Assembly: GCA_964504985.1 (NCBI GenBank)
Contig: CAZDFU010000003.1
Span: 822-64,821, forward strand
Source of the DNA: an uncultured Gammaproteobacteria bacterium
GTDB lineage: Bacteria; Patescibacteriota; Microgenomatia; Daviesbacterales; UBA10151
Direction: 5' to 3'
DNA: 64,000 bases
Both the position numbers and the translations under genes were made by a program. This document shows, in pieces, positions 5,466-29,012 of this stretch. The notes beneath the pieces are model-generated. The model was given only the letters and a program-made list of their open reading frames with translations. It was not told the DNA's origin and searched no databases. Each line of letters begins with the position of its first letter. Within the stretch, counting starts at the first letter, position 1.

Positions 5466-5474
5466 AGTTTTCCT

Positions 5475-5801
5475 TTAGTTTAATTTTTGTGGATTTTGTT
5501 TTAAGTCTGTAACAACCTTTTGCAGCTCCTGTTCCAGCTGTTCTGCTAGAAATGGAATTTGGGAGGCATATTCTTCTATTTTTTCCTTCATTTGGGGGCT
5601 GTCAGCAGAAAGATCTTTTAAAGAAGAAAGCTGTTCTTCATTTAAATTATCAACAATAACATCAATAATTACCCCATCCAAATATGTTCTAATCTTTTCA
5701 GATAAAGGTATTCTTTGATCTTCTGGGAGACTGGTAAAACCTGGTGAAGCAAGCACTTCTTTAACTAAATTATCTAAATATTGGTTAATCTTTTGATCCA
5801 T
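5475..5801 (-). CDS. Hypothetical small acidic coiled-coil protein (108 aa)
   Basis: ORF in operon position between 521-aa and PP2C genes; no recognised motif. Confidence 0.4.
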   Translation of the reverse strand: MDQKINQYLDNLVKEVLASPGFTSLPEDQRIPLSEKIRTYLDGVIIDVIVDNLNEEQLSSLKDLSADSPQMKEKIEEYASQIPFLAEQLEQELQKVVTDLKQNPQKLN

Positions 5802-5802
5802 T

Positions 5803-7368: not shown

Positions 7369-7502
7369 AGATCAAAGAGTAAGTCAAATTTTTAAACAGA
7401 TAAAAGAAGAGGCAGGAAAGAGAAGATCAAAATGGATATTCCTGCAATTATAGATAAAATGATCCAGACTATTTTAAATTTTTTGTTATACATATAAATT
7501 TT

Positions 7503-8624
7503 CTAGGTGTGAGTTGTTAGTTTCTCTATTTCCTCCAAAGCTGCCTTTCTTTTTGGGTCTTCAAAATAGCTTCTAACTGGTTCAAGTTTTTCAATTATCC
7601 ATTCTGCCACAGCTTTTTTTAAATCCTGAGGGTGAAGCTTTTTTTCAGCATAATCTTTTTCCAGCTCCTCATATGAGGAATAGCTTAAATTTCCACCCCA
7701 TCTTTCATCTCTGTTAACTTCTAAAGTAGTTTTTGAATAAAATATTAAATACCTTGTCCAGTTTAAAATTGGATTTCCTTCAATAATCCCTTCTGGAGCA
7801 TAAGCATCATTTATTTTTTTCCTTATTTCCTCTTCTGTGTCATGGATAGATATACCACTGCCAGGTTTAGATTTGCTCATTTTATTTTTCATAGCTGCTT
7901 CATCAGCTTCCCCGCCGCTGTCTGCTGGTCCTGATAAACTAAGCAAAATTGGGTGATGTATGGCTACAGGTTTTATTTGATTGCCTTTAATATCTTTTAA
8001 GGGGTTTGTTTTAACCTGCATGGCAGCGTCTTTGGCAATCACATGTACCTTTCTTTGGTCAATTCCTGCATGAGCTATATTTGCTCCAAGTAAAAATATA
8101 TCTGCTGCCTGCATAATAGGATAAAACAGTTTATCTGTAGGCATTGAGTCGTCTGATTGATCTCTGCCCATGATGGTGATAGACCTTTTGGTTCTTGCCA
8201 GGGTAGTGGTTTTTCCTATTTCCAAAAGAGTCAGCCAAAAATCAGGGTTTTTTGCATATGTTTCTGAAGTCAGTTTAAAGATTAGTTTTTCAGGATCCCC
8301 TCCTATTAAGGTAAATAAAGCCTTGATAGCTTCTTCAAAATAATCTTTGGCTATTTTTTTAATAATCTCTAAATCGCCTCCTAATTTATCATTAATGGCT
8401 GAATGCAGATCTGCCAGCCAAATTAAAGTTTCTGCCCCGGCATCTTGCAGATCTTTAACCTTTAAAAGAGTAAATAAGTAGCCTAAATGCAGTTTTCCTG
8501 AAATCTCAAAACCAATATAATGTTTTAAGGGAGTATCTGAATTAATAAGTTCTTTTAATTCGTCTTCAGTTAAAACTTCCTCCAGGTTCCTGGTGATTAA
8601 ATTAAATTTTTCCTCATTGTTCAT
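7503..8624 (-). CDS. tyrS: Tyrosyl-tRNA synthetase, archaeal/eukaryal type
   Basis: HYIGFEISGKLHLGY (HIGH-like), KMSKSKPGSGI (KMSKS). C-terminal KLHPQDLKKAVAEWIIEKLEPVR closely matches M. jannaschii TyrRS ELHPMDLKNAVAEELIKILEPIR. Confidence 0.85.
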   Translation of the reverse strand: MNNEEKFNLITRNLEEVLTEDELKELINSDTPLKHYIGFEISGKLHLGYLFTLLKVKDLQDAGAETLIWLADLHSAINDKLGGDLEIIKKIAKDYFEEAIKALFTLIGGDPEKLIFKLTSETYAKNPDFWLTLLEIGKTTTLARTKRSITIMGRDQSDDSMPTDKLFYPIMQAADIFLLGANIAHAGIDQRKVHVIAKDAAMQVKTNPLKDIKGNQIKPVAIHHPILLSLSGPADSGGEADEAAMKNKMSKSKPGSGISIHDTEEEIRKKINDAYAPEGIIEGNPILNWTRYLIFYSKTTLEVNRDERWGGNLSYSSYEELEKDYAEKKLHPQDLKKAVAEWIIEKLEPVRSYFEDPKRKAALEEIEKLTTHT

Positions 8625-8649
8625 ATGGTAATATTAACACAGCTTAGGT

Positions 8650-10224
8650 ATGTCTAAAAATATTACTAAATTAACTTCTGCATTGGTGGCAGCTTATGAT
8701 CAGGTTTACTCATCTTCTGATGACAGGACTATCTCTGTGAACCCTTTGATAGCAGAACTTGCTACCTGGTATGAAAAGTTCCGTACATCTATGGATTACA
8801 GGGAGGATGAAGTAATCTTAAGAGCTGCAATTGAGAGGATTTTAAGAAGACGTTTGCTTTTAAGGGGAGGAGGCGGCGAAGCGGTTGCTGCTCCCTTAAT
8901 CCGGGAATTGATTTGGGCCCGCTATTTTCCTGATGCTTTTGTCCCCCAGTCCGCTGTTGAGAAAGTTACTGATATTATCAATCTTTACCTTAATCTTGAG
9001 AAAAAAATTAATGAGCATCACAGGATCAACCATGGCCAGGTTTATGATTGGATTGTTCATCTTCTTTCTTCTGAGATTGAGGATATTTTAAAGCCTGGTA
9101 ATGAAAAAGATTTGATGGCCCATTACATCTATCAGATTTTTAAAGACAGGATTACCATAAGTGATGATTCAGAAGAAACAAAAGATATTCAGGTGTTTAT
9201 TGCTGTGAGGCGTTCTTATGCTAATGATGATTTGGCACTTTTGCGGTTTAGATTGTTCAGGCAATATTTTGGCAAAGTTACTTCAGAGAATGTAGACACA
9301 ATTGCCAAGCTCTTTCTTGAGGCAAAACATAAATTTGAAATGCATTTTAAATATCCTGCCAAAGATAAGATCTATAACTACATAAAAAAAGAAATGATCC
9401 CCTTTTTGATTTTGGATGATGTTTTCCAAAAAAACCGCGGTAAAGTTGGCCAGCTTGTTTTGGATGAAGACCATCTGGGTACAGAAGTATTGGCAGCTTG
9501 TAATACCCGGTATAAGACTATATCTGGTAAGGTACGAAGGGCAATTGTCAGAAGTGTTATTTTTATCTTTATGACTAAGGCTGTTTTTGCTTTATTTGTG
9601 GAAGGAGCGTTTGAAAGGTTTTTATATGGCAAGATTATTTGGTCATCAATTGTTTTAAATACTTTAACTCCTCCGGCTTTGATGATTTTGGTGGGATCTT
9701 TAATTCAAACTCCCAATAGAGAAAACTCCTTTAGGATTCTTAAAAAAATAAATACTGTTTTGTATGATGAGAATCCTTCTCTTGATGCTCCTTTAATTGT
9801 GAGGAAAAAACCCAGTAAAACTGATCCTTTGCTTTGGAGTTTATTTATTATACTTTGGTTAACTACTTTTGCCTTAAGTTTTGGGGGGATAATTTTTATA
9901 TTAAATAAGTTTAAGATTAATCCCCTGTCCCAGGTGGTTTTTGTGTTCTTTCTGGCAATTGTTTCCTTTGTTTCATTTAGGATTAACAGAACAGCCCATA
10001 TGTATATATTAAAGGTAAGAAAAGATAATTTAGGTTCATTATTTTTTGACTTTTTCTTTATGCCTTTTATACAAGTAGGAAGAAAATTAACTCAAGCAGT
10101 TTCACAAATAAATATTATTCTTTTTATTTTTGATTTTATAATTGAGACTCCCTTTAAGGGTATAGCTGCTTTTTTTGAACAATGGTTACTCTTTTTAAGA
10201 ACCCAAAGAGAAAAGTTAGATTAG
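8650..10224 (+). CDS. Hypothetical polytopic membrane protein (524 aa)
   Basis: Soluble N-terminal half followed by multiple hydrophobic helices (FIFMTKAVFALFV, LWSLFIILWLTTFALSFGGIIFIL, VVFVFFLAIVSFVSF). Confidence 0.5.
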   Translation: MSKNITKLTSALVAAYDQVYSSSDDRTISVNPLIAELATWYEKFRTSMDYREDEVILRAAIERILRRRLLLRGGGGEAVAAPLIRELIWARYFPDAFVPQSAVEKVTDIINLYLNLEKKINEHHRINHGQVYDWIVHLLSSEIEDILKPGNEKDLMAHYIYQIFKDRITISDDSEETKDIQVFIAVRRSYANDDLALLRFRLFRQYFGKVTSENVDTIAKLFLEAKHKFEMHFKYPAKDKIYNYIKKEMIPFLILDDVFQKNRGKVGQLVLDEDHLGTEVLAACNTRYKTISGKVRRAIVRSVIFIFMTKAVFALFVEGAFERFLYGKIIWSSIVLNTLTPPALMILVGSLIQTPNRENSFRILKKINTVLYDENPSLDAPLIVRKKPSKTDPLLWSLFIILWLTTFALSFGGIIFILNKFKINPLSQVVFVFFLAIVSFVSFRINRTAHMYILKVRKDNLGSLFFDFFFMPFIQVGRKLTQAVSQINIILFIFDFIIETPFKGIAAFFEQWLLFLRTQREKLD

Positions 10225-12302: not shown

Positions 12303-12381
12303 AATTTACTGGGAAACTCTGAATAGATACACAAAGTGCAGTTGACCAACGCTTTCCTTCTCTTGTAAAATACAAATAAAC

Positions 12382-13325
<944 letters not shown>

Positions 13326-13400
13326 TTCATAGTTATTAGTTGGTAGTTCGGAGTAATTTTAAATACTACGGACTATGAACTACGAACTCAAAACTAATCA
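13326..13400 (+). promoter_or_regulatory. Intercistronic stem-loop between atpE and atpF
   Basis: agttcatagt ... actatgaact inverted repeats with nested tagttcg/cgaact. Confidence 0.35.
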
Positions 13401-13895
13401 ATGGAAATTTTGAATCAATTTGGAGTACAACCTATACTTTTGGCTGCGCAAGTGGTCAATTTTTTGATACTCCTTTTTATTTTAAAGAGGTTTTTGTATA
13501 AACCAATTTTAAATGTTTTAGCAGAAAGAAAAAAAAGGATTGAGGACAGTCTAAAAAATGCCGGGGATATAGAGCTTAAACTTGAGCAGACAAATGAAAA
13601 GATAGATCAGATGCTTATTAAAGCCTCTGAGGAGGGACAAAAGATTTTAGATGAATCACAAAAAAGCGCTTTGCAGTTAAAAGATGAGATTTTGCAAAAA
13701 GCAGCCCAGGAAGCCCAAACAGTTATCAAAAAAGCTGAAGAGTCTGTTAGACTGGAAAGAGAAAAAATGATGAGTGAAGCTAAAGAGGAGGTTATGAATT
13801 TGGTGGTGGAAGTTTTTAGAAGATTAACAGGTAAAGTATTAAGCAAAGAAGACCAGAGAAAAATCATAGAAAAGGGAGTGAGGAATCTTACTTGA
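13401..13895 (+). CDS. atpF: F0F1 ATP synthase subunit b
   Basis: N-terminal TM helix then long charged coiled coil; operon position. Confidence 0.75.
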   Translation: MEILNQFGVQPILLAAQVVNFLILLFILKRFLYKPILNVLAERKKRIEDSLKNAGDIELKLEQTNEKIDQMLIKASEEGQKILDESQKSALQLKDEILQKAAQEAQTVIKKAEESVRLEREKMMSEAKEEVMNLVVEVFRRLTGKVLSKEDQRKIIEKGVRNLT

Positions 13896-14305
13896 AACAA
13901 TCAAAATTATTGCAAAAAACTATAACTAAGCTGGTTGAGGTTTCTTTTAAAGAAGGAAAACTTTTAGAGGCTCAGGTTACTAAATCCATCAAACTTCTAA
14001 AAGTCCTTCCAAAATATGAGGCTATCTGGGCTCTGACAGAATATTTAAAACAGTTAAAAAGAAAAGAAAGACAGCATACTATGTATATTGAAACAGTTAT
14101 GCCTCTTTCAGAACAGCAAATTAAAAAAGCCAAAAGAATTATTGAGAAAAAAGTGAAAATTACTAAAGTTAAGATTTCAGTTAACCCGGAGATTTTGGGA
14201 GGGTTTAAGTTAAAAGTGGGAGATGATATCTGGGATGAGAGCCTTTTGGGAAAACTTAATCAGGTAAAAGATGCGCTAGCTGGAAAAATTTCGGTAAGAA
14301 GTTAA
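13892..14305 (+). CDS. atpH: F0F1 ATP synthase subunit delta (short form)
   Basis: Operon position between b and alpha; overlapping start; OSCP-like C-terminus. Confidence 0.6.
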   Translation: MKQSKLLQKTITKLVEVSFKEGKLLEAQVTKSIKLLKVLPKYEAIWALTEYLKQLKRKERQHTMYIETVMPLSEQQIKKAKRIIEKKVKITKVKISVNPEILGGFKLKVGDDIWDESLLGKLNQVKDALAGKISVRS

Positions 14306-14314
14306 ATAAAAAAT

Positions 14315-15871
14315 ATGAGTGATCTTATAAACCAAATTGAGTCTGAAATAAAAGACCTTAAACTAAAAGCCCAAAAGCAAAATATAGGGACTGTGGTGGA
14401 AATTGGAGATGGTGTTTGCAGGATTGAGGGGTTGTCTGATGTAAAGTCCTCTGAGCTTTTGGATTTTGGCCCTTCGACTCCCTCTGGTCGCTCAGGACAA
14501 GTTGCCACAGAACATATTTATGGGTTGGCTTTAAATTTGGAACAATATAATGTTGGGGCTGTTATTTTTGGAGACTTTACTGCTATTAAAGAAGGCCATG
14601 AGGTTAAAACAACGGGCAGGATTTTAGAAGTGAATGCGGGAGAGGCTTTGGTTGGCAGAGTGGTTGATGCTTTAGGAAATCCGGTAGATGGTAAAGGCCC
14701 GATAAAGACAAAAACTGCTTACCCTGTGGAAAAAATAGCTCCAGGGGTTATCACCAGACAATCGGTTAATACACCATTACAAACAGGAATTAAGGCAATT
14801 GATTCTTTGATCCCTATTGGAAGAGGTCAGAGGGAGTTAATTATTGGAGACAGAAATACTGGTAAAACCACCATTGCCATAGATACCATCATTAACCAGA
14901 AAGATGTTATTTGTATTTATGTAGCAATCGGCCAAAAAACCTCCAAAGTTGCTCAGCTTGTGGCTAAACTGGAAGAATTAGGGGCTATGGATCATACAGT
15001 TGTGGTTTCTGCTTCAGCTGCTGATTCTGCTACCATGCAGTATCTTGCTCCCTATTCTGGTTGTGCTATAGGTGAGTATTTTATGGACCAGGGTAAAGAT
15101 GCTTTGATTATTTATGATGATTTATCTAAACATGCCTGGGCTTACAGACAGGTATCTTTGCTTTTAAGAAGGCCTTCCGGGAGAGAGGCTTATCCTGGGG
15201 ATGTTTTTTATCTTCACTCAAGGCTTTTGGAAAGGGCAGCCAGATTAAATAAAGAGTTTGGCGGAGGGTCTTTGACTGCTTTGCCTATTATAGAAACTCA
15301 GGCAAATGATGTATCAGCCTATATTCCAACCAATGTTATTTCTATAACTGATGGTCAGATATATTTGGAACCAGACCTGTTTTTTGCAGGGATAAGGCCT
15401 GCTCTTAATGTGGGGATTTCTGTTTCCAGGGTTGGGGGTGCTGCACAAACTAAGGCTATGAAGTCTGTAGCCGGAAGGTTAAAGTTAGATTTAGCCCAAT
15501 TTAGGGAACTACAGGCTTTTGCTCAATTTTCTTCTGATTTAGACCCTCAAACAAAACTTCAAATTGAAAGAGGTAGAAGGATTACAGAAATTCTAAAACA
15601 ACTTCCCTACTCCCCTGTCCCTTTAGAACAGCAGGTTGTTGTTTTATGGGCAGTAACTAATGGGTATTTAGATGAAGTGGAAGTTGGGAAAGTTAAAGAA
15701 TTTGAGGAAAAATATATAGCTCAGTTGAAAATAAGAGCTAAAAAACTTCTTTCAGACCTGGCAACAGAGAAGATTTTAGATGAAAAGCTAATTAAAGAAC
15801 TGGAGAAAGTAACTAAAGAATTTGTCAGTACATTTTTGAAAGGAGTAAAGAGAGCAACTGGTAACAAGTAA
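14315..15871 (+). CDS. atpA: F0F1 ATP synthase subunit alpha
   Basis: [19 protein letters not shown]-loop; alpha-subunit-wide similarity. Confidence 0.95.
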
Positions 15872-15921
15872 CTAGGAACCCTTTTAAAAGATCAGGGTTA
15901 CTTGTGCCTTGTTGCAAAACT

Positions 15922-18176
<2,255 letters not shown>

Positions 18177-18267
18177 ATATAATAGCTGAAGACAAAAAAG
18201 ACCAAGATTTTACTTTAAGCCTATTCCGATATTTTTCCAAGCCTTCTACCTGATTTTAATTTCTACT

Positions 18268-18349
18268 AAAATTTAATGTGGTTTTGTTGGCTTAAGGATT
18301 AAGTCAAATACCCTAGGTGTCAAGCTAGTCCACCTCCCAGGTGGGATTC
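18268..18349 (+). repeat. Short palindromic repeat family 1, copy A (tgtggttttg...ccctaggtgtcaagctagtccacctcccaggtgggatt)
   Basis: Shares an 80-bp similarity block with 19821-19910 and core with 33931-33998 and 47701-47768. Contains hairpin CCACCT-CCC-AGGTGG. Confidence 0.7.
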
Positions 18350-18352
18350 TTG

Positions 18353-19885
18353 TTACAGGCTGTTTAATTTGGTGGCCAGGGAATCTTGTTCTTCATTTAG
18401 CTTTTCATCCTGCTTAACCATTTGATTTTCTGCCTCAGTTAACCACACATTTGCCTCAAGTTTAGAAATAACAGCGGAGGCTATATTTATTCTTTGGGAA
18501 ATAATTTCGTTCATCCTATCAATATCTCTTTTATTTTTACTGTAAAAATCTGGATATTCTTTTAAATTTGCCCAATTAGGTTGAATACTTTTTAAGTCAC
18601 TTAATAATTTTTTCCAGGGGTTGATAGTTTCCTGGTCATAATTTGGTGGGACATAGCCTGCTAAATGTCCAACTACTATTTGGGCTGGGCAGCCATTCAG
18701 CTGCCCCTCAACTTCTGCAATACCTATATCCTGAAAATCCTGGTTTAATAGGAATTTTTTTGAGTCTGGGAATGAGAATTGATTTTCTATTAATTCCTCT
18801 GCTTCATAATAGCCTAAAGCAGATGTTTCCCCATAAGTAATATTGGAATACCCTGCATCTGAGAGGGCTTTTTTCATGGTATAACCACTTCTGGTGGCCT
18901 CAAAAGAGAGGTCATTATATTTAAGGCTTATTTTGCCTCTGCTGGCAGCTGATGTTTCAAGTCTGGTCTGATATCTTAAGGGACCGGCACCTGCTTCTCT
19001 TCTTTTTTGGTTTAATAATTCTAAATAACGGTTTTTATCCAGCTTAATTTTTGAGATTTCTTCAAGATCTTTGTCAGTTTTTCTCCAATTTTTATCTAGT
19101 GTGTCTTTTTGTTTTTTCAAAGGGATAACATGGTCTATATCTTTAAACTCTATCAGACCCAGTGTGTGCCTTGAATCCCCGCTTCCCTTTCTATTGTCCC
19201 CCATAACAAATAATTTTCCAGCAGGAACTGTCAGGCTTTTGCAGTCAGCTAAAAACTCTCCCCCAAAAGTAGACCTGGCTTTAAAAATATATGGTTCTTT
19301 TTGAGGCTTACCATTTAAAAGTAATACCCCGTCTTTTATTTCTAATGTATCTGCAGGCAGTGCAATAACTCTTTTAACAAAACCTCTTGGTTTATCCCCG
19401 TCTTTGGTAGTTATTTCTGCTGTTTTAAAATTATAAAAAGAGACTATATCCCCTCTTTCTATTTCATAAGAAAATAATTTATATCCAAATAAATTAAGAC
19501 CAGAAGGATACCTCATCATTCCAGTAGTGCCTACTATTTCCTTTGATTGTTCCTCTGGGGTTTTGCCTTCACCTTTGGGAAAAGTGGGATACATTGACCC
19601 AGTTCCTGACAGTGGGATATAATCTTCCACCAGGTTTAATTTGTCCAATACTAAAAAAGCAGTTAATTTATATGAACTAATCCAAACAGGTACCAAAATC
19701 AAGAGGGTTATTAGGGCAAGAAAGGGCAGAAGAAATCTTTTTACAATTAAATATCCAATTGTTACAAAACTAAAATATTTTTTCATGAACTTACTAATAA
19801 TATAATAATTTATTGTGGTTTTGATGGGTTTTGCTATCCTTAGTCCTAGGGATACAGAAATTTCCCTAGGTGTCAACCTGGGCAC
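18353..19885 (-). CDS. Signal peptidase I fused to C-terminal CAP/SCP (YkwD-like) domain
   Basis: N-terminal TM. SGSMYPTF (box B Ser), KRVIALPADTL (box D Lys), GDNRKGSGDSR (box E). C-terminal half LLNQKRREAGAGPL...YGETSALGYYEAEELIENQFSFPDSKKFLLNQDFQDIGIAEVEG resembles CAP/PR-1 domain. Confidence 0.6.
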   Translation of the reverse strand: MPRLTPREISVSLGLRIAKPIKTTINYYIISKFMKKYFSFVTIGYLIVKRFLLPFLALITLLILVPVWISSYKLTAFLVLDKLNLVEDYIPLSGTGSMYPTFPKGEGKTPEEQSKEIVGTTGMMRYPSGLNLFGYKLFSYEIERGDIVSFYNFKTAEITTKDGDKPRGFVKRVIALPADTLEIKDGVLLLNGKPQKEPYIFKARSTFGGEFLADCKSLTVPAGKLFVMGDNRKGSGDSRHTLGLIEFKDIDHVIPLKKQKDTLDKNWRKTDKDLEEISKIKLDKNRYLELLNQKRREAGAGPLRYQTRLETSAASRGKISLKYNDLSFEATRSGYTMKKALSDAGYSNITYGETSALGYYEAEELIENQFSFPDSKKFLLNQDFQDIGIAEVEGQLNGCPAQIVVGHLAGYVPPNYDQETINPWKKLLSDLKSIQPNWANLKEYPDFYSKNKRDIDRMNEIISQRINIASAVISKLEANVWLTEAENQMVKQDEKLNEEQDSLATKLNSL

Positions 19886-19910
19886 CTCCCAGGTGGGATT
19901 TACCGTTTAA
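19821..19910 (+). repeat. Short palindromic repeat family 1, copy B
   Basis: tgtggttttgatgg...gaaatttccctaggtgtcaacctgggcacctcccaggtgggattt. Overlaps the last codons of the 176-aa ORF. Confidence 0.7.
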
Positions 19911-20430
19911 GGTCTGCAGGGGCTCTTAGGTATGGATTGTTTTCCAGATGACTGGAATTATTTGCAGAATTTTGAACCTGGGGAGGGTTTTCTTTAAAAA
20001 CCCCTATCCCCTCTATTACACCAAGGGTTTGTTGGTTTCCTGGCTGGGTAGTTAAATCCTGGGAAATTGTGGCTACTTCTTTGTTGGTAGAACTTACTGA
20101 AGGCAATTGTTTTATTAAGGAGATGGTTTCTTCCCTGTTTTGCCAGGCAAGTAATTTACTTTCATCTTCAGCTACTTCTCCCATTTTTTCTTCAAGGTTT
20201 GTTAAAGGAACATCTATTTCTCCTCTTTCCACAATATCCCCTAAAATATCTCCTGCATTGGCAATATGTTCAAAAGGCAGGCCTGCTAAAGCATAAGCCT
20301 TGATGGTATTAACATATTGGGTATAATTTTGTTGTTGGGAAGTTATTTTAAATGATTTCGCCCTGGTTAAAGGATGGGATGATTGTGAACTCAAAAGATC
20401 ATTCTTTGGGGCAGTTAAATTATTATGCAT
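19900..20430 (-). CDS. Hypothetical protein (176 aa); C-terminal residues encoded by repeat copy B
   Basis: ORF; no motif; final ~4 codons lie within the repeat. Confidence 0.4.
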   Translation of the reverse strand: MHNNLTAPKNDLLSSQSSHPLTRAKSFKITSQQQNYTQYVNTIKAYALAGLPFEHIANAGDILGDIVERGEIDVPLTNLEEKMGEVAEDESKLLAWQNREETISLIKQLPSVSSTNKEVATISQDLTTQPGNQQTLGVIEGIGVFKENPPQVQNSANNSSHLENNPYLRAPADLKR

Positions 20431-20488
20431 AGAAATGGATTCTACCAGATCTACTCAAGTATTTACTATTGGAGTATAATCTCACAAT

Positions 20489-21976
20489 ATGCAGATCCCA
20501 CAGACTCATATCAATATTAAAGTTAGAGATCTTTTTAAAAAGATCTATCAGGGCAGGAAAATTAATTTAGCTGCTTCTAAAAGTTCTTTAGAAATGCAGC
20601 TTAATTTATATTTGGACCATTTAAGCAGCCACACATTTGTAAAAATATCCCAAAGAGACAGAAAAAGGATCTGGGAAACAATTGAAAGAAACAACCATGT
20701 TGCCAAAACTTTATCTTCCCCTTTATATAGAAAAATTGTTAAAAGCAAAAGGGAGCTTTCCAAAGAAGTATCTATTGGGTTTGTTTTTTGTATTGATGGC
20801 AGGATTCCTGCCATTTTTTTAGGAGGAAGGTTTGCCAGGCATTTTGAGATTCCTGCTGGAGAAATATCAATCATTAGAAGAAAATCAGATGGCAGAATAA
20901 TTCCAGACTCTTCTGATTTAAATGAGGCTTTAAGAAAAACAGCCACCTCAAATGATGATTTATTGGAGATTGTGTTTGCTCATACTTCTTTATCAAACCC
21001 CCATCATGGTTGCGGGGCTATGATTGCCAAGATGAGGGCAGGTTTGCTTGATCCAAAACTTTCTTTAGAGGAGGCAAATTTAAAAATAATAAGAGATAGG
21101 ACTATTCCGGCAATTTCTAATATTTATAATGAGTTTAGAATTCAACAAGGGAATGAACCCTTGAAAATGGTGGGAATTTCCGCGCTTTTTGACACAGATA
21201 CTTTTGGCATAATTTTAAACTATGATTTAAGAAAGGCCAATAATTCCTTATCTACAACAGACCTTACAAATAAGTATGCTTCAGAGTTGGATGAGTACTT
21301 CATCAAAAACAATTTAGTATTTGGATCATTTAAAGAAAAATTCTCTGATTTAAAATTTTTAATCCCCCTTTCCCAGAATACATTAAAAATAGTTGAGGCT
21401 TTGCTTAATAAAAAAATAGCACCAAAACTTTTAGATGAGATTGGAGAATATATAAATAAGTTTTATTCTGATCTGACAGAAGATCAAAAACAGGCATTAA
21501 TTTTTGTATTGCTAAGAAACATTGCTTTTCAATATTTAACAGGGCTGGCTAAATTTAAGAAAAAAAGTGCTGATCATCCTTTTTTGGAACATGGAGAATC
21601 TTTTTTAGCTGTGGCTATGAGAGGAACGACCATTGGTAAATTTGATCCTCAAAATCAGGGATTTGCCTCCTCCCCTTCTGATCCTAAGCAGGCAATTTCT
21701 AATATTAATACCATGCTTTCTATTATGGGTGATTCCTCAAAACTTAAGCCCTATATTTTATTTGTCTGTAACAGTGTTAACAGCAGGGACTTAAGGGAAA
21801 ATAACCAGGTTATACAAAGGATAATTGGTTCAAATGCAGGCTTACTTAGGGATATTATTGAAGATAAGAAATTGGGTGAGATGATAGAAAAAGGTGAGAT
21901 GATACCAGTGCCTGTTTTAATTGAGGAAGATTCAAGGGAAGTTTTAAAAATAGTTGACCATTCAGGATATATTTAA
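20489..21976 (+). CDS. Beta-class carbonic anhydrase-like domain protein with long C-terminal extension (495 aa)
   Basis: FCIDGRIP (C-x-D-x-R) and NPHHGCGAM (H-x-x-C-G) ~60 aa apart, the two zinc-ligand signatures of beta-CA. Confidence 0.45.
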   Translation: MQIPQTHINIKVRDLFKKIYQGRKINLAASKSSLEMQLNLYLDHLSSHTFVKISQRDRKRIWETIERNNHVAKTLSSPLYRKIVKSKRELSKEVSIGFVFCIDGRIPAIFLGGRFARHFEIPAGEISIIRRKSDGRIIPDSSDLNEALRKTATSNDDLLEIVFAHTSLSNPHHGCGAMIAKMRAGLLDPKLSLEEANLKIIRDRTIPAISNIYNEFRIQQGNEPLKMVGISALFDTDTFGIILNYDLRKANNSLSTTDLTNKYASELDEYFIKNNLVFGSFKEKFSDLKFLIPLSQNTLKIVEALLNKKIAPKLLDEIGEYINKFYSDLTEDQKQALIFVLLRNIAFQYLTGLAKFKKKSADHPFLEHGESFLAVAMRGTTIGKFDPQNQGFASSPSDPKQAISNINTMLSIMGDSSKLKPYILFVCNSVNSRDLRENNQVIQRIIGSNAGLLRDIIEDKKLGEMIEKGEMIPVPVLIEEDSREVLKIVDHSGYI

Positions 21977-22043
21977 TTGACTAGGCTGGTATAATGTAAA
22001 TTAAGAATGCGACCCCCTAAAAAGGGTCGGTTTTTTAAAAGAT

Positions 22044-23132
22044 ATGAGTGAGCAGATAAAAGAGCCAATAAATCCTCAGCATTTACTTGAGGATAACTAT
22101 TCTGATAAAGCAGGAGAAAACATAGAAAAAATTCTTCAATTAAGAAAGGAAGGTCAACTTATACTTTTAATGGGTTGTTCAGATGCCAGGCTTATTTTGC
22201 CTGATGATGTTTACCAGATTAGAACCATCTCAGCCACAGGGCCAAGAAGCCCTTGGGAAAAACCTTTAAATTACGGAAGAACAGCTGGGGTAATAATTAT
22301 GGATCATTTATATTGCGGGGGTTTACTGGCAAAGGCTCAGCTTCCTGAAAACATTTTAGATGATGATACAGCTTTAGGATTTGTTAAAGATCACGTGTGG
22401 ACTGACGATCCGATTGTTCAGTCTATTCTGACTGGTTCATGGACAGCATCACGTACTCAAAAACCAGTTTTATCTGCTGTTCAGAATCCATATGATGGTT
22501 CGGTTTATATCCAAGGAGCTTTCAATAATGGTGAGCAAACCGAGCATAAAACTATTCCTACATATAAACTAATGCAAAGATATATTAAAGAAAAATTATA
22601 CGGTGATGAAATTCCTCAATTAAGGCCTGATTTAGTCCTCTCAATTTTTTCTAATATTTTGGGCCGGTTACCAGAAAAAGTTAAATTAATAGCTGAAAGT
22701 GTAGGAGATTTAACAACTTATCAAGGTACACAAGACCCGGAAGTGGTTGCTGTGACGTCTAACTTAAAAGCACTTTCAGCAAGATTCCCTGCTCTTTTTG
22801 GTCTTTCAAATACTGTTTTTCAGGTTAGCTTAAGAAGACAATCACTAGATATTGAAGGAGAATTAGAAACAAATGATGTAAGGGAGGTTTTCAGGCAAAT
22901 ACATTATCCTCTTTCCCATTGTATTGAAAATAATAAATCTGAAGGTAGATTACCATTTAAAAGTACAAGGGTTTTATATTTAGAAACTGGAGATATGAAA
23001 GATTCTCTTAGGCTGGCCCATCGTGTTAAAAGAAGGCGTGAAGTACAGGAGTGGTTAGATCTGCCAGGCAGAGTCATAATAGCAGCACAAGCTGTAAGAG
23101 GAAGAATCCAGCAAATTGAACTGGTTGTATAG
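22044..23132 (+). CDS. Beta-class carbonic anhydrase-like domain protein, second paralog (362 aa)
   Basis: GCSDARLILP (C-x-D-x-R) and IMDHLYCGG (H-x-x-C-G) ~45 aa apart. Confidence 0.45.
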   Translation: MSEQIKEPINPQHLLEDNYSDKAGENIEKILQLRKEGQLILLMGCSDARLILPDDVYQIRTISATGPRSPWEKPLNYGRTAGVIIMDHLYCGGLLAKAQLPENILDDDTALGFVKDHVWTDDPIVQSILTGSWTASRTQKPVLSAVQNPYDGSVYIQGAFNNGEQTEHKTIPTYKLMQRYIKEKLYGDEIPQLRPDLVLSIFSNILGRLPEKVKLIAESVGDLTTYQGTQDPEVVAVTSNLKALSARFPALFGLSNTVFQVSLRRQSLDIEGELETNDVREVFRQIHYPLSHCIENNKSEGRLPFKSTRVLYLETGDMKDSLRLAHRVKRRREVQEWLDLPGRVIIAAQAVRGRIQQIELVV

Positions 23133-23165
23133 AATCATTAAAACTTGCTATAATTTCTTCAACAA

Positions 23166-23576
23166 ATGTCACAGCTTCATTTAAAAATTGTAACTCCAGA
23201 GAAATTGCTAGTTGATGAAGAGGTTTCCCAGGTTAATGTTTCAACTGTTAGCGGGATGATTGGAATTTTACCGAATCATGCTAATTTAATGGCTAAACTT
23301 GCTCCCGGGGAGTTAACTATTAAAAAAGGTGGAAAAGTTGAGACTTTGGCAATAGGTTCAGGTTTTTTACAAGTTTCTGATAATACTTTATCTATCATGA
23401 CAGATTTAGCAACCCCTGAATCAGACATTGATGAAAAAGCTGTTGAGGAGGCTAAAAAAAGAGCAGAAGCTGCTTTGGAAGAAAAACTCTCTGATGAAGA
23501 ATATGCAGAAACCCTGGCTAATTTGGAAAAATCCTTAGCCCAGCTTAGGGTTAAAAGAAGGCATAAGGTAAGATAA
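23166..23576 (+). CDS. atpC: F0F1 ATP synthase subunit epsilon
   Basis: MSQLHLKIVTPEKLLVDEEVSQVNVSTVSGMIGILPNHANLMAKLAPGEL...AQLRV matches epsilon beta-sandwich + helical hairpin. Separated from atpD by ~5 kb. Confidence 0.85.
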   Translation: MSQLHLKIVTPEKLLVDEEVSQVNVSTVSGMIGILPNHANLMAKLAPGELTIKKGGKVETLAIGSGFLQVSDNTLSIMTDLATPESDIDEKAVEEAKKRAEAALEEKLSDEEYAETLANLEKSLAQLRVKRRHKVR

Positions 23577-23669: not shown

Positions 23670-24602
23670 ATGGCTAGTTTAGAAAGCCCTGATCTTTCAA
23701 TTATTATCCTAAATTATAATGTTAAGGAGCTATTATTAAAATGTTTGGAGTCTATTTTTAAAGACCCTAATTCTAAAAACTGGCAGGTTATTGTGGTGGA
23801 TAATGCTTCAGAGGATGGTTCTGCAGAAGCTGTTAAGAAAAAATATCTGAATTCCCAAATCCAAGTTGAAGTTGTGGAAAGCAAGGAAAATCTGGGCTTT
23901 GCAGGAGGTAATAATTTAGGAGTAAAATATGCCAAAGCTCAGGCTGTTTTATTTTTAAATCCAGATACTTTGGTTGTGGGAGATGCTGTCTCTAAATCTT
24001 TGGAGTTTTTGTTATCTAACCCAGATATAGGAGCCCTAACTTGCAGAGTGGAGCTGCCTGATGGGAAACTAGATTACTCCTGTCACAGAGGTTTCCCTAC
24101 TCCCTGGAATTCTTTTGCTTATTTTAGTGGTCTTTCTAGAGTTTTTCCCCGTTTCCGGCTGTTTTCAGGATACACTGCCTCTTATCAAAATATTAAAACC
24201 ATACATGAGATAGATTGTTTAACTGGAGCATATCTTATGGTTAGAAAAATTGCCGGTGATCAAATAAATTGGTGGGATGAAGATTATTTTTGGAATGGTG
24301 AAGATATTGAATTTTGTTACTCTTTAAAAGAAAAAGGTTGGAAAATATTTTTTTATCCAGAGGCAAAAATTATTCATTATAAAGGTTCATCCTCTGGTCT
24401 CTGGTCTTCTAAAGCAGTTTCTGTTGAGAAAGAGAAAATGTTTACCAGCGCTTCTCATGCAGCTTCAGCCATGAGGATTTTTTATATGAAGCATTACTTT
24501 AAAAAATACCCGGTAGTTTTAAGGGAATTTATTTTATGGGGAATTAAATCTTTGGAACACTTCAGAAAGTTTAAAATCAGAGTGGGGTTAAGGTATAAGT
24601 GA
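23670..24602 (+). CDS. Family 2 glycosyltransferase
   Basis: IIILNYNVKELLLKCLESI...VVDNASEDGS; DxD region; GT-A fold. Confidence 0.8.
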   Translation: MASLESPDLSIIILNYNVKELLLKCLESIFKDPNSKNWQVIVVDNASEDGSAEAVKKKYLNSQIQVEVVESKENLGFAGGNNLGVKYAKAQAVLFLNPDTLVVGDAVSKSLEFLLSNPDIGALTCRVELPDGKLDYSCHRGFPTPWNSFAYFSGLSRVFPRFRLFSGYTASYQNIKTIHEIDCLTGAYLMVRKIAGDQINWWDEDYFWNGEDIEFCYSLKEKGWKIFFYPEAKIIHYKGSSSGLWSSKAVSVEKEKMFTSASHAASAMRIFYMKHYFKKYPVVLREFILWGIKSLEHFRKFKIRVGLRYK

Positions 24603-24603
24603 C

Positions 24604-25491
24604 ATGGATTTATCAATAATAATACTAAGCTATAATACAAAAGATATTACCGGTCAATGTTTACTGAAGTTAAAGAGTGCTGTAGACAGTTTACAAAAGA
24701 AAACAGGCAATAATGCAGAGGTCATTGTTTTGGATAATGCTTCATCAGACGGATCTGTTGAAATGATTAAAACCAATTACCCCTGGGTTCAGCTAATTGA
24801 ATCAAAAGAAAATACAGGGTTTTCCAGGGGCAATAATTTAGCATTTAAAAAAACCAGATACCCCAATATTTTATTTTTAAACTCTGATGTTTATGTTGGC
24901 GAGGATACATTAATTAAAAGTTTGGAATATTTTAAAAATCATGGTTGTAATGTCTTGGGAGTTAGGCTTGTTTTTGAAAATGGAAAATTCCAACCCTCGG
25001 CCGGAAATTTACCAACACCAATTAATACTATTTTTTGGATATTAGGATTTGGACAACTGTTTAACCCATTTCATCCTAAAAGTGAGAATTTTTTTTCCCA
25101 GGAAAGAGAAGTAGGTTGGATTATGGGAGCATTTTTTATGATTAAAAGAGAAACTTTTATCAGTGCTGGTGGATTTGATGAGAATATTTTTATGTATATG
25201 GATGAGATTGATCTTTGCAAAAGGGTTTCAGATCTGGGTTTTAAGATCTGCTATGCCCCAGTTACTGAGGCAGTCCATCTGCACAGGGCCAGCAGCAAGG
25301 ATAATCCTGAGAAAGCCTTTACATTGGAGCTTAAGGGTATGAAGGTTTATCTTAAAAAATATCATGGATCCTGGTATCAGGTAATTAAATTATTTTTGAT
25401 CCTTGGGTTGGTTTTAAGAGTGATTGCTTTTTCCTTGTTTGGAAGAACAGCTAGAGCTAGGGCTTATATTGAAGGACTAAAAGAAGTATGA
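24604..25491 (+). CDS. Family 2 glycosyltransferase
   Basis: SIIILSYNTKD...VLDNASSDGS; overlapping start with upstream GT. Confidence 0.8.
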   Translation: MDLSIIILSYNTKDITGQCLLKLKSAVDSLQKKTGNNAEVIVLDNASSDGSVEMIKTNYPWVQLIESKENTGFSRGNNLAFKKTRYPNILFLNSDVYVGEDTLIKSLEYFKNHGCNVLGVRLVFENGKFQPSAGNLPTPINTIFWILGFGQLFNPFHPKSENFFSQEREVGWIMGAFFMIKRETFISAGGFDENIFMYMDEIDLCKRVSDLGFKICYAPVTEAVHLHRASSKDNPEKAFTLELKGMKVYLKKYHGSWYQVIKLFLILGLVLRVIAFSLFGRTARARAYIEGLKEV

Positions 25492-27269
25492 AAATTGCAA
25501 TTATTACACTTAATTACAATGGTAAAGAAGATACTTTGGAGTTACTAAATTCTTTAAAAAAACTAAGATCTAAAATCTATGATCTTAAAACTATAGTAGT
25601 GGATAATGCTTCAGAAGATGGAAGCGTGGGCGCTATTCACAAGGCTTTCCCTGAAGTAGATATTCTCCAGACAGGAGAAAATTTAGGCTTTGGACAGGGA
25701 TATAATAAAGGTTTTGAATATGCCAAAATCTGGGGGCCTGACTATTACTTGCTGATAAACAATGACTCAAAAATAGAAGACCCTAAACTTTTAGATAAGT
25801 TGCTGCAGGTATTTAAAAAAGATCCAAAAATTGGGATGGTTGCTCCTAAGATTTTATTTGAAAAGGGGTTTGAGTTTCATAAAGACAGGTACTCAAGTGA
25901 TGATTTAGGAAAAGTTATATGGTATGGGGGTGGTTTTATGGATTGGAATAATATACGCTCAGTTCACAGGGGCATAGATGAAGTTGATAGGGGTCAGTAT
26001 TCAGAAGTGGAAGAAGTGGGTTTTATCAGTGGTGCCTGTTTTTTAATTAAAAAAGAAGTTTTAGAAAAAGTTGGTGGATTCAGTGGAGATTATTTTCTAT
26101 ATTTTGAGGATGCCCAATTTTGTAAAAAAGTTTTAGAAGCAGGATATAAGTTATATTACTGCGGGCAAACTGTAATCAACCATAAAGTATCCCGTTCCAC
26201 AGGCATTGGTTCCAGCTTAACTGATTATTACCATACCAGGAATAGGCTTATTTTTGGCATGAAATATGGAAGGTTTAGGGCAAAGTTTGCCCTGGTTAGA
26301 GAAGCTATCAAGTTGTTGCTTATTGGCAGGCCTGCCCAAAGAAAAGGATTACTGGATTTTTATCTGGGAATAAGAGGAAAAGGAGAAGAGTCCCCAGGTG
26401 TCCCAACCGTGTATCCGTTAAAACTGTCCATTGGAATTGTTAATTATAAAACAGCCCAATTAACAAAAAAACTACTGGAAAGTATCTTTAAAAAAGATTC
26501 AGGATTTGATTCCAAAACAATGGAAGTTATAGTTTTGGACAATGGGTCAGAAGATAATTGTAAAGAAGCTATAAAAGAATTTTTGCCCAGGATAAAATAT
26601 CTGGAAAATAAAGAAAATGAAGGGTTTAGCAGAGGTTATAATAAAACCATAAACTTCTCTTTGGGTAAACATTATTTAATGTTTAACTCTGATATTGAAG
26701 TATTACCAGGCAGCTTATCTGAAATCCTTAAGGCAGCAGAGCATTTTGAGGGAAAGGCAGTTTTATCTGGGAAACTATTTTTTCCAGATAAAACAGATCA
26801 GGATTCTGTCTATCACTTGCCTACCCTTTCTGGCGCTTTTGATGAATATTTCTTAGGTAAGAATGGATCTTATTTTATGTACCTGCCTCGCCATAAGGCG
26901 GGTCAGCCAAAGTCTGAAGAATATACAAAAGTAGAAGGAGCAGTAATGGCTTGTTTTTTGATACCAAAATATATTTTAAATAAAGTAGGGCTTTTGGATG
27001 AGCAGACTTTTATTTATTTTGAGGATATAGAATATTGCAGGCGTTTAAAAAAGTTTGGATTCCCTGTTTATTTTGTACCTTCTGCCCATTTTATTCATCA
27101 CCATGGTGCTTCATCTAAAACTATAGGAGTTGATAAATCCCAGGCTCTTTTACAAAAAGCAGCCAGGCATTACCATGGAGGTTTTTATTATTTTCTCCTC
27201 TCCTGGGTATTGAGGTTAGGCCAGAAATTTGGCAGGGTTCAAACCCCTGTATCAAGGTGGACTAAATAA
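25488..27269 (+). CDS. Tandem double family 2 glycosyltransferase (two GT-A domains, 593 aa)
   Basis: N-terminal IAIITLNYNGKEDT...VVDNASEDGS and second LSIGIVNYKTAQ...VLDNGSEDN with downstream DxD-like motifs. Confidence 0.75.
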   Translation: MKIAIITLNYNGKEDTLELLNSLKKLRSKIYDLKTIVVDNASEDGSVGAIHKAFPEVDILQTGENLGFGQGYNKGFEYAKIWGPDYYLLINNDSKIEDPKLLDKLLQVFKKDPKIGMVAPKILFEKGFEFHKDRYSSDDLGKVIWYGGGFMDWNNIRSVHRGIDEVDRGQYSEVEEVGFISGACFLIKKEVLEKVGGFSGDYFLYFEDAQFCKKVLEAGYKLYYCGQTVINHKVSRSTGIGSSLTDYYHTRNRLIFGMKYGRFRAKFALVREAIKLLLIGRPAQRKGLLDFYLGIRGKGEESPGVPTVYPLKLSIGIVNYKTAQLTKKLLESIFKKDSGFDSKTMEVIVLDNGSEDNCKEAIKEFLPRIKYLENKENEGFSRGYNKTINFSLGKHYLMFNSDIEVLPGSLSEILKAAEHFEGKAVLSGKLFFPDKTDQDSVYHLPTLSGAFDEYFLGKNGSYFMYLPRHKAGQPKSEEYTKVEGAVMACFLIPKYILNKVGLLDEQTFIYFEDIEYCRRLKKFGFPVYFVPSAHFIHHHGASSKTIGVDKSQALLQKAARHYHGGFYYFLLSWVLRLGQKFGRVQTPVSRWTK

Positions 27270-27822: not shown

Positions 27823-29012
27823 TTAAAATATTTAAAATTACCAGGACTGGGGTTGTGGCTTTTTTGGCAGCCTTAATTTTGAGTTTTATCTTTGTTTCTT
27901 TAACTTATGCACATGAAGGTGAAGACCATGAAGAAGAAAACCCTGAACAGGCGGCTAAAAAATATAATCTAACTTTTCCTATAACAGAACTTGGGGGATG
28001 TCAAAATTATGCAGCCTGCAGGTCTTATTGTGAGTCTGAGGCTAATAGGGATCAGTGTACTTCCTATGCCAAGAAAAAGGGATTCTACCAGGAGAGAAGA
28101 AAAGAAGAAGGAATAATTAATGAAGCTAAATCCCAGTTAGGTTGTGATTCAGAATCCTCCTGCAGGGCTGTTTGTGAGAAAGAAGAAAATATTGAAAAGT
28201 GTTCTGCATTTGCCCAAAAGCATAATTTAGGGGGGCCCAGAGGAAAGCCGGGTGATAGGAATATATTACAAAAAGCCAAAGAAATTTTGGGATGTGATTC
28301 AGAGCAGTCTTGCAGGTCAGTTTGTGAGAATCCTGCCAACCAGGACAAATGTTCTACTTTTGCTGCTCAAACTGGTTTAGGTGGAGGGGTTAGAAGGGTT
28401 GGGCCTGGAGGGTGTAATTCTGAAGAAAGCTGCAGGAGTTTTTGTGAGAAAAATATTGATGAATGCAGAAAGTTTGGAGGAGGGCCCCCTGAGGGGTATG
28501 ATAGTGGCAGAAAAGGTCCTGGCGGGTGTAATTCTGAGGAGTCTTGTAATGCTTATTGTCAGTCTAATCCAGAAGAGTGTGCAAAATTAGGAGGAGGTAC
28601 TGGAAATTTTGGAGGAGGAAGAAGGGGTCCTGGAGGGTGTGATAGTGAGGAATCTTGTAGAAGATATTGTGAGGCAAATCCTAAAGAATGTGGTATTGGT
28701 GAAAGAGGTGTTAGAGATCAAAGAGAGGGTTTTGAAAGAGAAGGAAGAAGGGATTTTAGACCTGAGAATAATCAGAGACCAACAGAAAATTATCAAAGAG
28801 AAGAATTTAGGTCTTCCCAGGAGTACCAAAGACCAGTTGAGGATCAGTACCAGCAGCCTCAAACATATGAACTCCCCAGACAAGACACTCAGCCTGCTGA
28901 ATCTTTTCAAAGGGAATCATCATCAGATACTTTCACTAATACAACCCAAGAAGTTAGAGGGGCTTCAACAGGAAGAAATCTATTCCAACAAATCTTAGAT
29001 TTCTTGTTTTAG
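27819..29012 (+). CDS. Secreted/anchored protein with six tandem ~45-aa four-cysteine repeats and Q/E/R-rich tail
   Basis: N-terminal hydrophobic segment. Repeats G-C-[DN]-S-E-x-S-C-R-x-x-C-E-x(5,6)-C-x-x-[FY] occurring six times. Confidence 0.6.
   Translation: MIKIFKITRTGVVAFLAALILSFIFVSLTYAHEGEDHEEENPEQAAKKYNLTFPITELGGCQNYAACRSYCESEANRDQCTSYAKKKGFYQERRKEEGIINEAKSQLGCDSESSCRAVCEKEENIEKCSAFAQKHNLGGPRGKPGDRNILQKAKEILGCDSEQSCRSVCENPANQDKCSTFAAQTGLGGGVRRVGPGGCNSEESCRSFCEKNIDECRKFGGGPPEGYDSGRKGPGGCNSEESCNAYCQSNPEECAKLGGGTGNFGGGRRGPGGCDSEESCRRYCEANPKECGIGERGVRDQREGFEREGRRDFRPENNQRPTENYQREEFRSSQEYQRPVEDQYQQPQTYELPRQDTQPAESFQRESSSDTFTNTTQEVRGASTGRNLFQQILDFLF

Follow-up and report, generated by a model that had tools for sequence, protein, structure and literature searches.

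Divergent carbonic-anhydrase-like genes beside a detached atpC gene in Candidatus Daviesbacteria

Carbonic anhydrases (CAs) are found in association with ion-translocating machines in several described systems. In acid-secreting animal cells a CA is paired with the V-ATPase, and in the DAB system (DabA + DabB) as well as in the cyanobacterial CUP/NDH-1 complexes a beta-CA-like protein is paired with such a machine. The distribution of F-ATPase genes over more than one transcription unit is also familiar: in cyanobacteria and chloroplasts the atp operon is split into atp1 and atp2, and the beta and epsilon genes stay together as atpBE. Here we describe a locus with features of both kinds, located in a 64,000-nt stretch of DNA (hereafter the window; contig CAZDFU010000003.1 of assembly GCA_964504985.1, positions 822 to 64,821) from a member of the Daviesbacterales (Patescibacteriota). 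In this locus atpC, the gene of the F1 epsilon subunit, is detached from the remaining F-type ATP synthase genes and lies next to two genes, ORF3 and ORF4, whose products appear to be very divergent members of the beta-class CA superfamily. Unlike in the atp1/atp2 arrangement, the epsilon gene alone is detached, it lies no more than a few kb away from atpD, and it is paired with CA-like genes. Our literature search found no report tying CA genes to the atp operon in Patescibacteria, and it returned nothing relevant on CsoSCA in bacteria of the Candidate Phyla Radiation, on PF20393, or on Daviesbacteria with CA.

The ORF map places most genes of the F-type ATP synthase (atpBEFHAGD) in one contiguous plus-strand run at 12382-18176, composed of atpB (12382-13098), atpE (13122-13325), atpF (13401-13895), atpH (13892-14305), atpA (14315-15871), atpG (15904-16779) and atpD (16806-18176). 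The Pfam scan matched OSCP, ATP-synt (gamma) and ATP-synt_ab within this block, while subunits a, c and b were assigned by ORF order and by homology (tblastn) to loci with Pfam ATP-synt_A/C/B matches. The atpC gene (23166-23576, plus strand) encodes a complete epsilon subunit with both of its domains (ATP-synt_DE_N, E 4e-25; ATP-synt_DE, E 6.4e-9), which in the NCBIfam scan scored 112.6 bits against TIGR01216, for which the cut-off is 67.25. The F1Fo subunit set (a, c, b, delta, alpha, gamma, beta and epsilon) is therefore complete in the window. The gap between atpD and atpC (18177-23165) measures 4,989 nt, in agreement with the earlier note on this DNA, which had placed atpC about 5 kb downstream of a contiguous atpBEFHAGD. 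Two genes on the minus strand and two ORFs on the plus strand (ORF3 and ORF4) lie within it, and its G+C content does not set it apart as foreign. Given this gap, the two opposite-strand genes within it and a -10 box in front of atpC, the locus does not have the form of a single atpBEFHAGDC transcription unit. A scan of the window against Rfam at the gathering threshold detected tRNAs only.

The delta subunit encoded by atpH is short (137 aa; 129-136 aa in relatives) and its match to the OSCP profile is limited to positions 46-172. Its gene starts with TTG and overlaps the end of atpF.

Relatives of the locus were collected in a census anchored on AtpC, which was chosen because a narrower ORF3 alignment returned only 4 loci. 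It comprised 80 metagenome loci and loci from homologue searches (the L numbers below refer to related loci); 66 unique loci whose AtpC is at least 60% identical to that of the window are referred to as close. In all 28 close loci holding both genes atpD and atpC are split, with gaps of 377-12,906 nt. The earlier note had pictured 5 kb inserted into an otherwise contiguous operon; this picture finds no support, as the split is the normal state in the close relatives and what varies is the gap content alone. A CA-like gene lies inside the gap in 23 of these 28 loci. In 47 close loci 700 nt or more of sequence precedes atpC; 41 of these carry a CA-like gene 5' of atpC, and in 35 it is no more than 200 nt away. 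The linkage of CA-like genes with atpC, first suspected from the window, is thus conserved across the clade, and it recurs with four dissimilar CA-like families.

These families are ORF3, ORF4, Pro_CA_2 (PF20393) and CDCA (PF18484, the zeta-class cadmium CA repeat), and sequence similarity between them is undetectable: ORF3 and ORF4 were compared directly, and Pro_CA_2 and CDCA each have a Pfam model of their own. As neither BLASTP nor hhalign shows any relationship between ORF3 and ORF4, the two are not recent paralogues. Pro_CA_2 (about 120 aa; E 1e-16 to 7e-20) and CDCA (about 230 aa; E 2.6e-22) were verified above the Pfam gathering scores. Both occupy the same atpC-adjacent slot in relatives and Pro_CA_2 shares the CxDxR and HxxCG motifs, but both are missing from the window and have no detectable similarity to ORF3 or ORF4. 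Among the 47 loci, Pro_CA_2 occurs alone in 20, ORF3 alone in 6 and CDCA alone in 3; the combinations are ORF4 with Pro_CA_2 (4 loci), CDCA with Pro_CA_2 (3), ORF3 with ORF4 (2, the window and L047), CDCA with ORF3 (2) and ORF3 with Pro_CA_2 (1). Typical gaps in relatives read atpD-[glyoxalase, 123 aa]-ORF3-atpC, atpD-ORF3-324 aa-CDCA-[465 aa]-atpC, or atpD-[Fic, MazE, AHSA1, Pro_CA_2]-ORF4-atpC, and the spacers from ORF3 or ORF4 to atpC are 4-48 nt long in most loci. None of the gaps examined contains a Rubisco or carboxylase gene.

Loci further removed from the window, with an AtpC identity of 38-47%, have a contiguous atpDC (spacing -1 to 243 nt). Even there Pro_CA_2 directly follows atpC on its 3' side in 6 of 14 loci, on the same strand in Parcubacteria-type genomes, and named genomes of Magasanikbacteria and Kerfeldbacteria show the order atpGDC-small ORF-~220 aa-Pro_CA_2.

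Two further ORFs next to atpC gave no family match. One, in L035 (9186-9956), has the motifs CIDER...HPECG and may represent a fifth CA-like type; the other, in L094 (3273-3926), has ACSDGQR...HMPCG and may be a degenerate one.

ORF3 (20489-21976, plus strand, 495 aa) was classified by its motifs, its AlphaFold model and Foldseek searches as a CsoSCA-like protein of the beta-CA fold. Its N-terminal region is helical, and of the two lobes that follow the first is catalytic and the second, C-terminal one degenerate. The catalytic lobe bears C101-I-D103-G-R105, H165 and C175, which are invariant across 59 sequences with identities down to 25%, and the invariant columns contain no second CxDxR/HxxC set, which suggests one zinc site per chain. 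The model (pLDDT 90.5, pTM 0.90) found CsoSCA in each of its five best matches in the PDB (8thm chains A-C, 2fgy and 9g4t; E 5.6e-10, 8.1e-9 and 1.4e-8 for the three entries, probability 1.00), all over the full length (533-556 columns). These were followed by the tandem beta-CA 1ddz and then by canonical beta-CAs.

CsoSCA (PDB 2FGY, 8THM, 9G4T; PF08936/PF20686) is hence the best full-length structural match of ORF3. Judging from the model, the two share a three-part architecture (helical N-terminal domain, catalytic domain, degenerate C-terminal domain) with one zinc site per pseudo-dimer, and they also have in common the Asp-Arg dyad and a Cys...His-(10/11)-Cys spacing. The ligands of HnCsoSCA are C173/H242/C253, with spacings of 69 and 11 (PMC12646314, from which its domain limits were also taken); in ORF3 the arrangement is Cys-64-His-10-Cys, with a His-Cys gap of 10 where the HxxC motif has 3. 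On the other hand, ORF3 is not recognised by the Pfam CsoSCA models: CsoSCA_cat was matched by a single one of the 59 members of the family alignment (E 5e-4, sub-threshold), and CsoSCA by none of 20 divergent members. Moreover, its host is a non-autotrophic Patescibacterium, and there are no carboxysome shell, Rubisco or cso genes near ORF3, whose neighbours are atp, peptidase and glycosyltransferase genes; the same holds for the relatives.

CsoSCA homologues outside carboxysome operons have been described as 'non-cso' orphans by Pulsford et al. 2024, near NAD or [Fe-Ni] hydrogenase and permease genes (PMC11086599). They are shorter than the carboxysomal proteins, with one zinc site to each pseudo-dimer (PMC11086599), as is predicted for ORF3. 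They nevertheless fall within the CsoSCA Pfam family and have not been reported as atp-linked, whereas the ORF3 family lies outside that Pfam family and is linked to atpD/atpC; the complex-I/hydrogenase-like neighbourhood met in our material belongs to an ORF4 homologue (L100), not to ORF3.

The ORF3 family gave 87 matches in a word-index search, and an exhaustive search of 1.84 billion proteins gave 171 representative clusters; members were found only in Daviesbacteria and other Patescibacteria. In every relative looked up at 49% identity or more, the gene is located between atpD and atpC. One relative, L008, has two ORF3-family copies (8386-9876 and 13969-15480) within a single 12.9-kb atpD-atpC gap.

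ORF4 (22044-23132, plus strand, 362 aa) encodes a predicted two-lobed protein of the beta-CA fold, as indicated by motifs, model and Foldseek. The residues C45-S46-D47-x-R49 and H88-x-x-C91-G92-G93 are invariant in 18 sequences, and the zinc ligands (C45, H88 and C91) are kept in the first lobe only, so that one intact site is expected. The best PDB match of the AlphaFold model (pLDDT 84.5, pTM 0.85) is the tandem beta-CA 1ddz of Porphyridium purpureum (E 1.4e-7, 436 columns), which carries two beta-CA lobes in one chain, as ORF4 appears to do; many canonical beta-CAs follow. The CxDxR and HxxCG motifs occupy the same places as in canonical beta-CAs such as E. coli CynT2/Can and H. influenzae HICA. 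The protein differs from all of these in having ligands in one lobe, in going unrecognised by Pro_CA and in its low identity (~12-19%). The ORF4 family profile found beta-CA sequences weakly (7 of the top 8 matches, E 0.02-1), and of the 19 matches that make up the ORF4 family one is named 'Carbonic anhydrase' in UniRef. ORF4 homologues lie directly 5' of atpC in L009-L013, L047, L059 and L064, while one with 48% identity (L100, 1-6068) is divergent from a complex-I/Mrp-like module with NuoB, NuoL and NuoH homologues.

Taken together, ORF3 and ORF4 possess the Cys-His-Cys ligand set of the beta-CA superfamily, and both are probably zinc-dependent. The Asp-Arg dyad of CxDxR is invariant in each (D103/R105 in ORF3, D47/R49 in ORF4), and in the model secondary structure the motifs are placed as in beta-CAs, with one Cys closing a strand and the His...Cys pair located where a strand ends and a helix begins. 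Both models have the alpha/beta fold of beta-CAs, and beta-CAs are their top Foldseek matches, with probabilities of 0.95-1.00 and moderate TM-scores of 0.25-0.5. We therefore file the two as beta-CA-like on the basis of invariant catalytic motifs and predicted structure, despite the failure of profile searches, and consider them very divergent superfamily members with apparently intact active sites. The earlier note had called them two beta-CA-like genes, an assignment which holds for motifs and predicted fold and finds no match in the Pfam and NCBIfam profile searches.

Several candidate transcription signals, read as consensus boxes only, precede the genes of the locus. A promoter-like TTGACC-18-TAAAAT (12342-12371, plus strand) lies just 5' of atpB. 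In the region 5' of 20489, for which the earlier note had suggested a promoter search, a perfect TATAAT at 20475-20480 (plus strand), 8 nt before the ORF3 ATG, is a candidate of the leaderless type, and TTGATG-16-TATAAT (20300-20327, plus strand) is an alternative. A -10-like box no more than 15 nt from the start is present in 6 of 9 ORF3-family genes, against 11% of random positions. The atpC gene has its own promoter candidate, the extended -10 box TGCTATAAT (23146-23154, plus strand), 11 nt before the ATG; -10-like boxes within 15 nt of the start, usually at 6-9 nt, precede atpC in 52 of 55 close loci versus 11% at random positions. The corresponding rates for other atp genes are 10/15 for atpB, 1/20 for atpA, 6/24 for atpG and 5/25 for atpD. 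Since the box is near-universal before atpC in the close loci as compared with random positions, atpC points to being a separate transcription unit of the leaderless type with a putative promoter of its own.

In relatives a minus-strand Pro_CA_2 gene stands head-to-head with the plus-strand atpC, separated by 12-81 nt, usually 24-25 nt (L018 2965-2989, and also L014, L017, L021, L022, L046, L050, L054, L057 and others). In 14 of 16 such spacers there are -10-like boxes in both directions, combined in a near-palindromic element of the TATTATATAATA type. Such a spacer looks like a compact bidirectional promoter serving two leaderless genes.

A G+C-rich hairpin (CGACCC/GGGTCG followed by U6; 22010-22036, plus strand, z -2.55) ends 7 nt before the ORF4 ATG and is itself preceded by an extended -10-like box, TGGTATAAT (21987-21995, plus strand), with analogous boxes before the hairpin in L047, L099 and L100. 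The whole leader, i.e. a -10-like box, a hairpin (often CGACC/GGTCG), a U-run and an ATG 7-20 nt further on, was found in all seven ORF4-family loci compared: the window (21987-22043), L047 (1318-1366), L012 (9700-9749), L009 (9950-10003), L059 (8325-8375), L099 (4950-5003) and L100 (4948-5003). Its stems differ between loci in a compensatory fashion, and a MAFFT alignment of the leaders is out of structural register; no Rfam family matched it. The hairpin could be taken for a mere terminator of ORF3, an explanation which we reject as the sole one, as the same element precedes ORF4 genes with a divergent neighbour (in 4 loci the upstream gene is divergent). The stretch between the hairpin and the ATG is too short to hold a promoter, so that the ORF4 mRNA must include the hairpin. 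The leader is thus a terminator-like element and a candidate attenuator or 5' stabiliser.

Based on these observations, we lean, with some caution, towards the view that divergent CAs occupy a clade-wide slot adjacent to atpC and are coordinated with the ATPase. In Candidatus Daviesbacteria the epsilon gene would have been uncoupled from atpBEFHAGD and placed under its own leaderless-type promoter, and atpC would almost always have one to three CA-like genes at its side, drawn from interchangeable families (ORF3, ORF4, Pro_CA_2 or CDCA-like). The remaining gap content (the peptidase, ORF176, glyoxalase, toxin-antitoxin and other genes) would be variable filler. A cytoplasmic CA would accelerate the reaction CO2 + H2O <-> HCO3- + H+, and in an ultra-small, weakly buffered cell the CO2/bicarbonate pair could rapidly replace or absorb the protons moved by the F-type ATPase. 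In such a functional coupling the CA may buffer protons and bicarbonate for the ATPase, and its expression would be coordinated with that of the epsilon subunit, which regulates hydrolysis.

A bolder proposal may be derived from the same data, namely a dedicated CA/F-ATPase partnership in Patescibacteria. The CA-like proteins would then act on the ATPase itself, by docking to F1/epsilon or through local bicarbonate or proton levels, and set ATP hydrolysis versus synthesis, with the detached atpC and the ORF4 leader as a regulatory switch (responding e.g. to CO2, bicarbonate or pH). We regard this as speculative and rather unlikely.

The comparison with DAB and CUP/NDH-1 is of interest here, as a beta-CA-like protein would be paired with the F-ATPase in the window, and members of the same families lie beside other ion-translocating systems in L098 (two Na+/H+ antiporter genes, NhaA-type and Na_H_Exchanger, 2785-7476, adjoining a distant ORF3 homologue) and in L100. 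The likeness does not extend to the components: the region in the window has no match to PF10070 (DabA) or PF00361 (DabB), the partner is an F-type ATPase, and PF00361 is a neighbour only of the ORF4 homologue in L100.

A number of findings weigh against the coordinated-CA view. Neither ORF3 nor ORF4 has any Pfam or NCBIfam match at E <= 0.1, Pro_CA included, so that both fall short of the PF00484 (Pro_CA) gathering score, and the ORF3 family profile found no match among PDB sequences. The TM-scores of ORF3 with CsoSCA are only ~0.5, with an rmsd of 8.6-9.5 A (Foldseek). COS and CS2 hydrolases share the beta-CA fold, so that CO2 is one candidate substrate of ORF3 and ORF4 among others. With regard to the linkage, a CA-like gene could not be recognised 5' of atpC in 6 of the 47 close loci, the recurrence is owed in part to common ancestry within one clade, and ORF3 homologues at 35-37% identity are found away from atp genes. 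The simple co-transcription of ORF3, ORF4 and atpC that the earlier note had presumed is also doubtful because of the terminator-like hairpin between ORF3 and ORF4 (22010-22036, conserved in 7/7) and the -10 box of atpC itself (52/55), and it is not required. The earlier note had further held that an arrangement shared by all relatives with its gene content, together with a CA assignment failing in profile searches, would refute its proposal; as it turned out, the split is universal in the relatives and the profile hidden Markov models do fail, but the gene content is not conserved and the structure searches succeed.

The strongest of the alternatives is that these are real CAs serving carbon metabolism, whose bicarbonate would feed carboxylations and the synthesis of nucleotides, or whose CO2 would feed nucleotide salvage by form II/III RuBisCO, and that atpC merely offers a borrowed housekeeping neighbourhood of strong, constitutive expression without any direct functional tie to the ATPase. 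The closest structural relative of ORF3, CsoSCA, works with Rubisco, and more distant ORF3 homologues lie near nucleotide and tRNA-modification genes (dCTP deaminase, thymidylate synthase, DHFR, QueA and TGT), away from atp; two relatives at ~37% identity adjoin TGT and fmt. Adjacency need not imply a shared transcript either, atpC having a promoter-like box. What this explanation accounts for poorly is the convergence of four dissimilar CA-like families on atpC, in varied orientations and in different classes of Patescibacteria, as well as the compact, apparently bidirectional promoter regions common to Pro_CA_2 and atpC. In addition, the antiporters of L098 and the complex-I-like module of L100 are proton-handling contexts, and Rubisco and carboxylase genes are missing from the gaps. 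We therefore consider it unlikely, if worth keeping in mind.

It is less probable still that the beta-CA fold and its metal site have been kept for another role, such as COS/CS2 hydrolysis, the sensing of bicarbonate or CO2, or that of a putative accessory binding F1/epsilon and tuning hydrolysis versus synthesis. ATP hydrolysis by F1 is stimulated by bicarbonate and other oxyanions, and the adjacency is specific to atpC, the gene of the hydrolysis regulator, and not to other atp genes. The extreme divergence from all profiled CAs would fit such a role, as would the extra degenerate lobe in ORF3 and in ORF4, given that this lobe forms an allosteric ligand site in cyanobacterial CsoSCA (PMC11086599). 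Yet the full catalytic set (Cys, the Asp-Arg dyad, His and Cys) is invariant, which would be needless in a pure regulator.

The least probable explanation, that the atpD-atpC junction is a permissive hot spot of insertion or recombination with the CA-like genes as inherited passengers, takes its strength from the variable gap content (peptidase, glyoxalase, Fic/MazE, AHSA1, MOSC, FolC/TatD, glycosyltransferases and a genome-specific repeat), from the spread of gap lengths and from the confinement of split loci to one clade, but it is hard to reconcile with CA-like genes being the sole constant of the gaps and the genes nearest to atpC, with their origin in four families of undetectable mutual similarity, and with a linkage that persists where the operon is unsplit (Magasanikbacteria, Kerfeldbacteria).

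The other two genes of the gap are encoded on the minus strand. The first (18353-19885, a 510-aa ORF) encodes a membrane-anchored signal peptidase I of family S26. The signal-peptidase-I/CAP fusion proposed in the earlier note holds for its peptidase part (Peptidase_S26, E 2.5e-23; TIGR02227, E 2.7e-24), while the C-terminal CAP/YkwD-like region is weak (Pfam CAP, E 0.049) and the match to TIGR02909 is below the cut-off (E 4.5e-6, 26.6 bits versus 171). Because the listed GTG start falls within a repeat, the true start is probably an internal Met near 19786. No homologue of this gene was found in any related atpD-atpC gap, so that it is an occupant of the gap in this window only. The second gene, ORF176 (19900-20430, 176 aa), matches no Pfam or NCBIfam model and has no assigned function. 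Its homologues lie within the atpD-atpC gap in 11 of the 47 close loci and conserve a C-terminal motif, ENNPYL.AP, and the gene may belong to the locus proper.

The repeat is about 38 nt long, and its core, CACCTCCCAGGTGG, has 4 exact copies in the window versus 0.19 expected. One copy (CCCTAGGTGTCAA...CACCTCCCAGGTGGGATT, 18311-18350) lies 3' of the peptidase gene, a second (19864-19900) lies between the ORF176 stop and the peptidase start, and two tandem copies with exact cores are located at 47708-47765 in the opposite orientation. Each minus-strand gene thus has a copy on its 3' side, and the repeat therefore flanks the peptidase gene only; the bordering of both genes, as first described, does not extend to the ORF176/ORF3 junction, where no copy was found. 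The repeat is missing from all 96 related loci compared and is accordingly genome-specific, and it folds no better than shuffled sequence. Being short, genome-specific, without a nearby transposase and not significantly structured, the repeats neither support nor exclude a mobile cassette around the peptidase gene.

Directly 3' of atpC there are three paralogous family-2 glycosyltransferase genes in tandem (23670-27269; repeat families D2 and D4), a trio that is syntenic in L001, L005 and L012. Further on, at 28137-28690, lie Cys-rich coding repeats in tandem (families D3 and D6, periods of ~111-150 nt).

Most Patescibacteria lack a respiratory chain, and the role of their F-type ATPase is an open question which the present finding addresses. 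What is new is the conserved genomic partnership of beta-CA subfamilies with atpC, together with a candidate cis-regulatory leader before a CA gene. Two of the CA-like families lie beyond the current profile libraries, and ORF3 would extend the CsoSCA fold past carboxysomes into non-autotrophs. The clade-wide pairing of CA-like genes with atpC suggests that the energy and pH economy of these cells includes buffering by CO2/bicarbonate or a supply of protons, a hypothesis that is open to experimental test.

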